From: a virus
Reading direction: 5' to 3' (one strand)
Virus record (IMG/VR): IMGVR_UViG_3300032323_003835
Coordinates: 1-64,000 of that record
DNA length: 64,000 bases
The first letter of the stretch is position 1, and each line of letters begins with the position of its first letter. Below the pieces are notes generated by a model that saw only the letters and a list, made by a program, of their open reading frames with translations, was not told the origin of the DNA and searched no databases. Position numbers and translations under genes: made by a program. Below, piece after piece: positions 19,075 through 20,577 of the stretch.

Positions 19075-20577
19075 ATGAGAACAGTATTGATAGGATCGGA
19101 CTTTATGTACGATAAAGACGGTAATTTAAGGCCGATCGAAATAAACACCGCAGTAGGTTGGGATGGCCCAGAAAAAGTGGAAGAAGATGCTGATTGCTTA
19201 GATTTAACAAATTTGTATCAATTTGTTGTGGATAACAATTTCCAAGCGATACATTACGTTGGAGATATTGGCCCATTACATGTGGCATTAGAAGCTCATT
19301 ATAAAGAAAGTTCGGTTACTTATGAATTTCATGGGGTTGGTAGTACGTCTATCACAATCCCGTATATTGAAGATAACGAGACAACTTTAATTATTAGAAG
19401 TGCATACGACACCACAGCTTTAGTTGATGACACGTATTGCAGAGATAAGATAGAATTTATGAACTTGGTCAAAGATTCTTCCTTCAGATCTAAATTTGCT
19501 TACGTTGACAGTAACGGAACACTGATATCAAACATTACATCTATAAATGATAATGGGGAACATCCTAACTTTATTTTAAAATCTAGATTTCCGGGTTATG
19601 ACAAGACTGTTTATCCAAAATTCTTTAAAGTAACCACACAATCTGAATTAGATACTTTAATTGCAAATAATGTCACGGAAGAATATTTTTTAATGGAATA
19701 TTTATATAACCCAAATAAACTATGGGAAGGGCATTTGACCGTAATAAGAAGTTTAAACATTTTATTTCCGCCAAACTTAGAATCAATCCAAATTGGACAA
19801 TACACAAAATTGAATCAAAATATGTTACTAAATAATGTAACATACGATCCAAATACATTTGAAGTAGATTCAGATTTTAAAGAGAGCTATAGTACAAATC
19901 CACCAACTGCTTCTCAACCTAAGTTATTGGATACAGACACTGTAGAAATGGCGGACGGCACATTCAAAACAGCATTAGATTTACAAGTCGGTGATGCCAT
20001 CAAAACAATCCAAATTCCTAATGAAGCCGGAATTAGTATAGACAGTTATATCTCCTCCAACTTTGGAATTACGTATGAAGAATTAGTATCTTCTGCGATA
20101 TACACAACTAACATTGTGACCAAGAAACAAAAAGTAAACACACTAACCTTTATAAACGAATTGGTATTTGAAGATGGAAGTACCTGGGAAGACACCATGG
20201 GATCTAGGTATTTAGTAGATAGAGAGGGAGCAGTTACGTTTAAGTCATTATTTTACATTTTACCAGGGGATTCTGTTATATTACTAGACACAACTGACGA
20301 TAATATAAATTTTGTTAAAAAAACGGTCACATCAAATACTCAGACCAAAAGTGTATTCTCCGGCTGGTATATTTCAGTTGAAACTGCAATGTTGTTTTTA
20401 ACTAAAACCTCGGGGTCATCTAATAACGAATCCTTTGTTTCGATTGAACACAACTATACATCATGTCCTGGATGGGCATGTATAAATGATTGTTCGGTCG
20501 CGTGCCCTTCGTGTCCAAAAAATATGGCTTGTACTGGTAGCAGCTGGTCGGGTTATAGTTGTTTCCCACTATGTTAA
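19075..20577 (+). CDS. circularly permuted ATP-grasp-like domain + Hint (intein-like) domain + 40-aa Cys-rich C-terminal peptide
   Basis: N-terminal GSDFMYDKDG..IEINT, later PNFILKS and YFLMEYL; Hint block A LLDTDTVEMADGTFKTALDLQVGD; Hint end IEHN; tail with 8 Cys. Confidence 0.72.
   Translation: MRTVLIGSDFMYDKDGNLRPIEINTAVGWDGPEKVEEDADCLDLTNLYQFVVDNNFQAIHYVGDIGPLHVALEAHYKESSVTYEFHGVGSTSITIPYIEDNETTLIIRSAYDTTALVDDTYCRDKIEFMNLVKDSSFRSKFAYVDSNGTLISNITSINDNGEHPNFILKSRFPGYDKTVYPKFFKVTTQSELDTLIANNVTEEYFLMEYLYNPNKLWEGHLTVIRSLNILFPPNLESIQIGQYTKLNQNMLLNNVTYDPNTFEVDSDFKESYSTNPPTASQPKLLDTDTVEMADGTFKTALDLQVGDAIKTIQIPNEAGISIDSYISSNFGITYEELVSSAIYTTNIVTKKQKVNTLTFINELVFEDGSTWEDTMGSRYLVDREGAVTFKSLFYILPGDSVILLDTTDDNINFVKKTVTSNTQTKSVFSGWYISVETAMLFLTKTSGSSNNESFVSIEHNYTSCPGWACINDCSVACPSCPKNMACTGSSWSGYSCFPLC

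Follow-up and report, generated by a model that had tools for sequence, protein, structure and literature searches.

A phage protein family joining a permuted ATP-grasp domain, a Hint domain and a hypervariable cysteine-rich tail: a possible self-processing peptide precursor

Why would a phage fuse an ATP-dependent ligase to an intein-like autoprotease and let the same polypeptide end in a small cysteine-rich segment? This question is raised by an uninterrupted open reading frame (ORF) in a 64,000-nucleotide stretch of viral DNA (the window in what follows; positions 1 to 64,000 of IMG/VR virus record IMGVR_UViG_3300032323_003835). The complete record comprises 111,205 bp, and its CheckV completeness of 33% implies a genome of about 330 kb. 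We call the encoded protein AGH (ATP-grasp + Hint + Cys-rich tail), i.e., residues 1-282 are assigned to an ATP-grasp domain, 283-460 to a Hint domain and 461-500 to the tail. On balance, we lean towards reading AGH as a self-processing precursor composed of a platform and its cargo, in which the ligase would acylate an amine of the cargo after or before the Hint domain releases it. Autoproteolytic release is the most probable step and a likely one. That the ligase acylates a cargo amine (the single Lys or the new N-terminus) is a tentative proposal, possible but doubtful.

We investigated the ligase part by folding residues 1-282 on their own, based on an alignment of 38 sequences (A3). The AlphaFold2 (AF2) model has a predicted local distance difference test (pLDDT) of 89.4, and an exhaustive structural search with it (VIA) returned almost exclusively ATP-grasp enzymes. 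The best matches are the glutathione synthetase (GS)-like 5oeu (Z 8.3), E. coli YgiC (7uka, Z 8.0) and GspS (2io7, Z 7.7). All 11 top matches belong to the GS/GspS/YgiC clade (Z 6.2-8.3), including trypanothione, homoglutathione and yeast GS synthetases as well as the E-64 ligase Cp1B, and their alignments start at model residue 1. Foldseek agrees (YgiC, E 6e-6, prob 1.0). The model confirms an ATP-grasp fold with the strand order of the eukaryotic GS/GspS/YgiC clade. For classical ATP-grasps (RimK, LysX/ArgX, Ddl, E. coli GshB, PurD, TTLL), only model residues ~56-279 are aligned, namely to their residues ~1-215. That is, the N-terminal hairpin is out of sequence order relative to these enzymes, which bears out the circular permutation that a preliminary description of this DNA had read from the motif order. 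According to the model, the permutation is not unique to AGH but common to the whole eukaryotic GS/GspS/YgiC clade; it was reportedly described for eukaryotic glutathione synthetase by Polekhina and colleagues in 1999. AGH is a pared-down version. Like its relatives it carries the D...E-x-N hairpin ahead of the rest, but while about 95-145 residues precede this hairpin in GspS, YgiC/YjfC and eukaryotic GS, the Mg-ligand hairpin of AGH is the very start of the protein.

The motifs themselves are largely as described before. The N-terminal motif reads G7-S-D9-F ... D15-G16 ... E22-I-N24, and Y204-x3-E208-Y209 follows later. The intervening P...K motif is also present, although its spacing is P164-x4-K169 and not PxxxK as had been stated. 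To fix the register of the D/E/N residues, and solely for this purpose, we used an hhalign comparison of the N-domain profile with E. coli YgiC, which is not significant (E 0.12). It equates D9/E22/N24 with YgiC D102/E115/N117, which we take to be Mg-binding residues, and the register is identical to that of the structural superposition. In an alignment of 71 AGH sequences with identities down to 24% (A2), E22, N24, R108, D118, P181 and R225 are invariant, N165 is likewise given as invariant, and D9 and K169 are conserved to at least 90%. At the sequence level, AGH has no match to GspS, YgiC/YjfC or eukaryotic GS, and the Hint domain and ribosomal peptide fused to it set it apart from them. 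Only chance-level matches were obtained for the N-domain profile against PDB sequences, and a search of the virus record with the GSP_synth profile (PF03738) found nothing. YgiC and YjfC are peptide-spermidine ligases according to the RefSeq product name and to Pederick 2023 as cited in PMC12568646. The nearest relatives of the AGH ligase would thus link the carboxylate of a peptide to an alkyl amine.

For the second domain, model residues 278-468 superpose on BIL2 of Tetrahymena (6y75), the top structural match, with Z 14.8 and a root-mean-square deviation of 2.4 A over 143 aligned residues. Further superpositions with Z 12-14.6 were found for the DnaB, RecA and VMA inteins, the bacterial intein-like (BIL) domain of C. 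thermocellum (Z 13.6) and hedgehog. In every superposition, residue 283 coincides with the first intein residue and N460 with the terminal Asn. The Foldseek E-value is 1.6e-7, and the AGH family profile matches the KlbA intein among PDB sequences (E 2.3e-5). The model therefore confirms the Hint fold, so that structure prediction yields both folds that the preliminary description had proposed from the letters.

Which chemistry does this Hint domain retain? Among the 71 sequences, intein position 1 is K (36), H (17), I (7), L (5), M (1) or T (1) and never Cys or Ser; AGH of the window has K283. The block-B His position (column 377 in KlbA register) holds S in 50, T in 8 and N in 5 of the 71 sequences, with S377 in the window protein. 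The residue following the Asn (+1) is Y in the window and Y, L, F, A, V, G, S, P or others in the family, where S, T and C account for 15, 7 and 1 of 205 cases. AGH thus lacks what intein splicing requires, i.e., Cys/Ser/Thr at position 1, the His of block-B TxxH and a +1 nucleophile. The terminal His-Asn, in contrast, is kept as had been claimed: it is found in 71/71 aligned relatives and, with 58 sequences added, in 124 of 129 full-length representatives. H459 and N460 are among only eight invariant non-Cys residues of the alignment. A Hint domain without N-terminal nucleophile but with His-Asn can neither splice nor form an N-terminal thioester, while cleavage after the Asn via a succinimide is possible. 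Judged from residue conservation, the N-terminal splice chemistry of AGH is entirely lost, and a putative C-terminal cleavage is the sole chemistry kept.

What lies behind the putative cleavage site is the 40-residue tail with 8 Cys that the preliminary description had pointed out; the Cys are found at residues 464, 469, 473, 477, 480, 486, 496 and 500. Its single Lys is K482. When released, the tail would have a mass of 4201.8 Da in reduced form and 4193.7 Da with 4 disulfides. In the AF2 model of the whole protein (from A2; mean pLDDT 87.5), values below 50 are restricted to residues 463-500.

We compared the evolution of the three parts. The ligase, the Hint domain and the tail have mean pairwise identities of 0.55, 0.46 and 0.22 among 67 sequences, and off the Cys columns the tail value drops to 0.13. 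Respective dN/dS values (Nei-Gojobori, 226 pairs) are 0.17, 0.18 and 0.38, with 0.59 for non-Cys tail positions, and dN is 5-7 times as high in the tail as in the body. The expected hypervariability of the tail behind conserved domains is thus observed. We do not claim positive selection on the tail, given that dN/dS is below 1 and dS near saturation.

Some features of the tail are nevertheless strictly kept. An even Cys count is observed in 168/173 short tails (8 Cys in 125, 6 Cys in 36), and Cys makes up 19% of the tail vs. 0.5% of the body. Each of 167 Cys-rich tails contains Lys (22 Lys-free tails expected), and 134 of them contain exactly one (44.5 expected). In the EHN subgroup, to which the window protein belongs, this Lys is found in a C-P-K context, while 16 of 22 tails of the QHN subgroup carry it within the final four residues. 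Tails are enriched in Pro (10.7%) and Tyr (7.4%) and depleted in Arg, His, Asp and Glu (the latter two with 2.6% and 1.9% vs. 8.0% and 6.4% in the body). These sequence statistics support the view that the tail is fast-evolving and behaves like a peptide product.

The relatives of AGH indicate that the cargo can be exchanged. In distant relatives, homology extends only up to residue ~460-465, and the sequences diverge beyond. What follows the His-Asn is a different Cys-rich tail, a BACON array or a long unrelated domain, in some cases with 100-1,200 further residues. D9, E22, N24, R108, D118, N165, K169, R225, H459 and N460 are kept in every cargo class. The label 'RiPP-like' (ribosomally synthesised and post-translationally modified peptide) used in the preliminary description hence fits part of the family, whereas some cargo is far larger than a peptide.

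Fifteen members carry a second self-cleaving domain after the peptide. In eight relatives, this is a canonical second Hint (Cys1, TxxHP, terminal HN) that follows directly (PF14890 with up to 57.9 bits, Pretoxin-HINT with up to 49 bits). One of them, P0271, shows two canonical Hints in tandem after the first Hint, separated by 2- and 6-residue peptides. In all eight proteins, the peptide between the Hints is without Lys, Lys is always found among the few residues behind the second HN, and neither Cys, Ser nor Thr occupies the respective +1 position. In P0176, the two Hints are separated by a Cys-free peptide of only 7 residues. In the other seven relatives, the Cys-rich segment is followed by a Peptidase_S74 self-cleaving chaperone domain, with three matches above the Pfam cutoff. 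Wherever the peptide has something behind it, a second self-cleaving domain is present, and we take this as a sign that both ends of the peptide are to be freed.

AGH relatives form at least 780 clusters (90% identity, E<=1e-3). Nearly all are 490-505 aa long, almost all are viral and none is named. We identified 66 AGH loci in IMG/VR, where the contigs measure up to 335 kb. Searches of the whole protein against Pfam, PHROGs and PDB sequences gave nothing significant, and the family is without annotation in all libraries searched. Neither AGH (tblastn) nor 8 kb of the window (blastn) has a match among 50,697 deposited phage genomes. Among ~186,000 species genomes, there is a single match, located on a 248-kb contig of a Flavobacteriaceae metagenome-assembled genome (MAG) with phage-like neighbour genes. 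This contig looks viral and provides a weak hint for a host among the Bacteroidota, in agreement with the BACON-bearing relatives. Sequencing runs other than the probable source sample show shares of at most 0.16 and are labelled freshwater metagenome, with no RNA run listed. Literature searches on ATP-grasps combined with Hint or intein-like domains, on autoprocessed phage proteins rich in cysteine and on jumbo-phage RiPPs found no description of the AGH layout, in line with the earlier statement that no such phage system was known to be described. The ATP-grasps mentioned in a 2021 jumbo-phage survey are R2K and RNA-ligase only, and its inteins are ordinary.

We studied the gene neighbourhood by a blast-based synteny analysis over the 66 IMG/VR loci; respective features are listed in Table 1. 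The ORF directly following AGH encodes a micro-protein with homologs of 24-30 aa at this place in 35 distinct loci, where AGH identities are as low as 41%; it shows in-frame indels and a pooled pN/pS of 0.51. The most distant AGH group has another conserved ORF there, with K-H-L among its final residues. The tightest conserved partner is the zinc-ribbon-like Z105, which is found in 65/66 loci, while the 66th locus stops at a contig edge. Z105 is located two genes downstream of AGH in close relatives, directly downstream at ~50% AGH identity and directly upstream at 25-30% identity as well as on the MAG contig. It has weak matches to DUF6171 and zinc ribbons and no assignment beyond. Complex prediction for AGH and Z105 gives a score of 0.52, compared to 0.01 for the best control, with a contact agreement between runs of at least 47% and a partner pLDDT of at least 60. 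The mark for a complex is reached by 58/80 solved complexes and 2/110 mismatched pairs, and at values of at most 0.60 by 7/80 and both mismatches; these counts hold roughly, since own alignments were used. The prediction lends weak support to an AGH-Z105 complex.

The sulfotransferase gene adjoins Z105/AGH in most of the distant loci, and its profile alignment covers the loop binding 3'-phosphoadenosine 5'-phosphosulfate (PAPS), the catalytic His and the 3'-PB motif. Together with nearby sulfotransferases, the trio of genes upstream of AGH may constitute a phage-encoded PAPS supply.

A further peculiarity of the region is a shared C-terminal tag. In the window, the C-terminal pattern K-[ST]-[LIVMF]-[LIVMF] is found in six ORFs where 0.16 are expected, and all of them are located at 10.5-23 kb. 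In a set of 65 loci, the tag is borne by 246 of 1,392 ORFs (2.4 expected, i.e., a more than 100-fold enrichment), with at least one in 64 loci. AGH itself is without the K-[ST]-[LI]-[LI] tag. The tag could be a docking or packaging signal or a ligase substrate.

One tagged neighbour, the radical SAM + SPASM protein, was considered as core maturase and rejected, since a homolog is near AGH in 2/66 loci. Elsewhere in the window, four ORFs of ~460-480 aa stand in a row (4322-5731, 5728-7170, 7170-8555 and 9131-10576), the last two of which match radical-SAM PHROGs and have homologs that recur as tandem copies in AGH loci. The ORF at 12442-14022(-) encodes an NAD-dependent epimerase/dehydratase fused to a C-terminal 2OG-Fe(II) oxygenase domain. 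Further assignments are a 542-aa protein at 28964-30592(-) matching phrog_850 ('RNA-binding protein', E 5e-40) and a Nol-like carbamoyltransferase at 58817-60496(-) (phrog_1601, E 5e-116).

Table 1. Features of the AGH locus and of related loci. Positions without prefix refer to the window; the prefix L denotes other loci. 2OG: 2-oxoglutarate; APS: adenosine 5'-phosphosulfate; HS: heparan sulfate.
Feature	Position	Strand	Remarks
AGH, whole ORF	19075..20577	+	500 aa; 261 representatives at 50% clustering
Circularly permuted ATP-grasp domain, GS/GspS/YgiC clade (predicted)	19075..19920	+	AF2, structural search, Foldseek, conservation
Candidate Mg ligands D9; E22; N24	19099-19101; 19138-19140; 19144-19146	+	YgiC register
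Hint domain, predicted C-terminal cleavage only	19921..20454	+	VIA, Foldseek, KlbA profile match, column counts
K283 at Cys1 position	19921-19923	+	
Terminal H459-N460	20449-20454	+	
Hypervariable putative cargo peptide, 8 Cys and one Lys	20455..20574	+	K482 at 20518-20520
Micro-ORF, 29 aa	20605..20694	+	directly after AGH; core IG-x-LI, invariant C-terminal -NS
176-aa tagged protein	20717..21247	+	no family match; in 31 loci
2OG-Fe(II) oxygenase, prolyl-hydroxylase type, tagged	21260..21841	+	PF13640 E 9.7e-14; homolog in 58/66 loci
Z105, 105 aa, zinc-ribbon-like	21843..22160	+	CxxC...CxxCxC...C; C-terminal K-T-I-L tag
Sulfotransferase, HS 2-O-sulfotransferase-like, tagged	22302..23033	+	profile A5 vs. 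PDB 3f5f/4ndz, E 8e-4
Upstream trio	18007..19055	+	in 25-32 of 66 loci
APS-kinase-like P-loop protein	18007-18435	+	
HxGH nucleotidyltransferase-like, 125 aa	18441-18818	+	weak NMNAT matches
DUF2061 membrane protein	18837-19055	+	
Radical SAM + SPASM protein, tagged	16543-17769	-	peptide-maturase-like
Tagged ORFs of the window	10569-11465(-), 16543-17769(-), 20717-21247(+), 21260-21841(+), 21843-22160(+), 22302-23033(+)		six unrelated enzymes; K-[ST]-[LI]-[LI]
44-46-aa ORF replacing the micro-ORF	L061:6753, L063:7016, L064:6145, L066:9697		
AGH homolog, 540 aa, 10-Cys tail	L069:5729-7623		Flavobacteriaceae MAG contig; Z105 homolog overlaps its start
Two-Hint relatives			P0169, P0176, P0182, P0256, P0204, P0231, P0219, P0271

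How could these parts work together? We propose that the platform, i.e., the constant GspS/YgiC-type ATP-grasp carboxylate-amine ligase fused to a C-cleaving Hint domain, stays the same while cargo is exchanged at the junction. In a first step, N460 would cyclise to a succinimide such that the N460-Y461 bond is broken, which would set free a peptide of 40 residues with eight Cys, one Lys and a new alpha-amine. We rate this release as the most likely part of the scheme because a constant platform and a cargo-exchange junction are combined with a Hint domain that preserves only C-cleavage chemistry. In a second, less certain step, which could take place before or after cleavage, the ligase may join an ATP-activated C-terminal carboxylate of a peptide to the Lys of the cargo or to its new N-terminus. 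As donor, we favour the adjacent micro-ORF with its invariant -NS end. The proposed acylation is based on three observations: the ligase is under equal selection in all cargo classes, its relatives join carboxylates to amines and the tails keep one Lys. In a third step, Z105, the tagged hydroxylase and the sulfotransferase might assist or decorate the peptide, which would fold via four disulfides once outside the reducing cytoplasm.

The combination of an ATP-grasp enzyme with a Lys-containing ribosomal peptide that evolves fast around a fixed scaffold resembles graspetides of the microviridin type. Their ligase, however, is a separate classical ATP-grasp; the respective RiPP ligase 7mgv matches model residues 56..278 only (Z 4.1). 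Graspetide cores furthermore need Asp/Glu partners, i.e., the residues that AGH tails are depleted in. Finally, a short leader is cut off by a separate protease in graspetides, while AGH has no separate leader peptide and a 460-residue enzyme is proposed to remove itself.

Several observations weigh against the proposed precursor function. The structural match of the ATP-grasp domain is middling (Z about 8) and has no counterpart of significance at the sequence level. F-block positions aid Asn cyclisation in many inteins, but the F-block His position of the 71 sequences is occupied by H (23), D (20) or M (8), and the F-block Asp position is variable as well. An even Cys count is also compatible with Zn(Cys)4 sites. 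One of the three AGH-Z105 runs scored 0.02. Without a signal peptide, AGH would require lysis or export for disulfides to form. The ligase is equally conserved when combined with a 1,200-residue BACON cargo or a 7-residue Lys-free peptide. Its substrate can therefore not be specific to the Cys-rich peptide.

There are alternatives in which the same parts serve other ends. First, AGH could be an ATP-driven ligation machine that joins the C-terminus of a partner (the -NS end of the micro-ORF or K-[ST]-[LI]-[LI]) to the Lys or N-terminus of the cargo, where Hint cleavage would discharge a branched or elongated conjugate. AGH would then be a phage counterpart of ubiquitin-like tagging without E1/E2/E3, and lineages with a Cys1-Hint would do the equivalent Lys-directed transfer via a thioester. 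In BUBL proteins, a small domain is flanked by Hints and its C-terminus becomes attached to the epsilon-amine of a Lys in the absence of E1/E2 enzymes, and BIL2 transfers its N-extein onto a Lys epsilon-amine, acting as a 'dispensing platform' (PMC8616854). Beyond the Hint structures, these Tetrahymena systems share with eight AGH relatives the geometry of HN, peptide, Cys1-Hint-HN and Lys. The window AGH differs from them, since it has one Hint without Cys1 in place of a two-Hint cassette, such that no thioester is possible. Moreover, its cargo is not ubiquitin-like, and an ATP-dependent ligase stands against the ATP-independent chemistry of BIL2. We consider the ligation machine unlikely.

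Second, AGH could be a polyprotein or polymorphic effector, where the Hint domain merely separates two products, the host or phage target of the ATP-grasp is unrelated to the cargo and the C-terminal module is a toxin, adhesin or signalling peptide swapped through recombination. The cargo classes are indeed mutually unrelated while the platform is constant. In polymorphic toxins, HINT is found just ahead of a variable C-terminal toxin that it is proposed to release (PMC3482391). This layout of Pretoxin-HINT (PF07591) and B-type BIL domains, i.e., an autopeptidase directly before an exchangeable C-terminal module, recurs in AGH. With regard to sequence, the window protein has no PF07591 match at threshold, and the first Hint of relatives reaches sub-threshold values only (21.3 bits for P0208, cutoff 27.7; E 4.6e-4 for 1/71 members). 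The N-terminal trafficking domains and following immunity genes of polymorphic toxins are not evident here. AGH has no repeat region and starts with the ligase hairpin, without signal or trafficking domain; the micro-ORF and Z105, for which an immunity role is conceivable, are conserved and do not vary with the cargo. Furthermore, the N-terminal partner is an ATP-grasp ligase, the position-1 nucleophile and block-B His are lost family-wide, and the cargo is mostly a peptide of 30-70 residues with even Cys count and one Lys. The strict single Lys of the tail and the placement of the second Hint between Cys core and Lys point to cargo chemistry instead. An effector role also leaves unexplained why the fusion of ligase and autoprotease is obligatory in every member, and we regard it as quite unlikely.

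Third, there could be no cleavage at all. In this case, the Hint domain would be degenerate and structural, and the tail a permanent binding domain of a ligase enzyme, stabilised by zinc or disulfides, that might dock substrates or partners such as Z105. The loss or variability of Cys1, block-B His and F-block residues would suit such a role, as would the even Cys counts, the rigid whole-protein model (pTM, i.e., predicted template modelling score, of 0.84) and the five full-length relatives that lack the HN. It is at odds with the invariance of H459/N460 down to 24% identity, with homology that ends exactly at the HN and with the second self-cleaving domains after the peptide. In addition, the tail has just one CxxC, is rich in Tyr and Pro, is without His and evolves much faster than the body. 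We therefore give a permanent tail little credence.

The weakest alternative, in which the ligase would join the cargo amine after Hint cleavage to the K-[ST]-[LI]-[LI] ends of neighbours in order to tag these or a virion protein, can draw on the carboxylate-activating relatives of the ligase, the tag enrichment around AGH, a platform indifferent to cargo type and the BIL2 precedent, but it is purely inferential, the tag could serve localisation just as well as docking or packaging, and no interface is given for Z105 in the complex prediction, such that we deem it highly improbable.

Overall, AGH appears to represent a new means of producing, modifying and releasing (or attaching) small peptides. 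If the self-processing precursor reading is true, one polypeptide would be its own maturation enzyme, release protease and product, where the product end is freely exchangeable. This would provide a compact and genetically portable route to disulfide-rich peptides, and the C-cleaving Hint domain with its modular junction might supply parts for protein engineering. The single Lys, the C-terminus of the micro-ORF and the island of tagged enzymes each represent a concrete prediction on new ligase chemistry. Given its size and nearly all-viral distribution, the AGH family would add a widespread, so far unrecognised function to large environmental phages.

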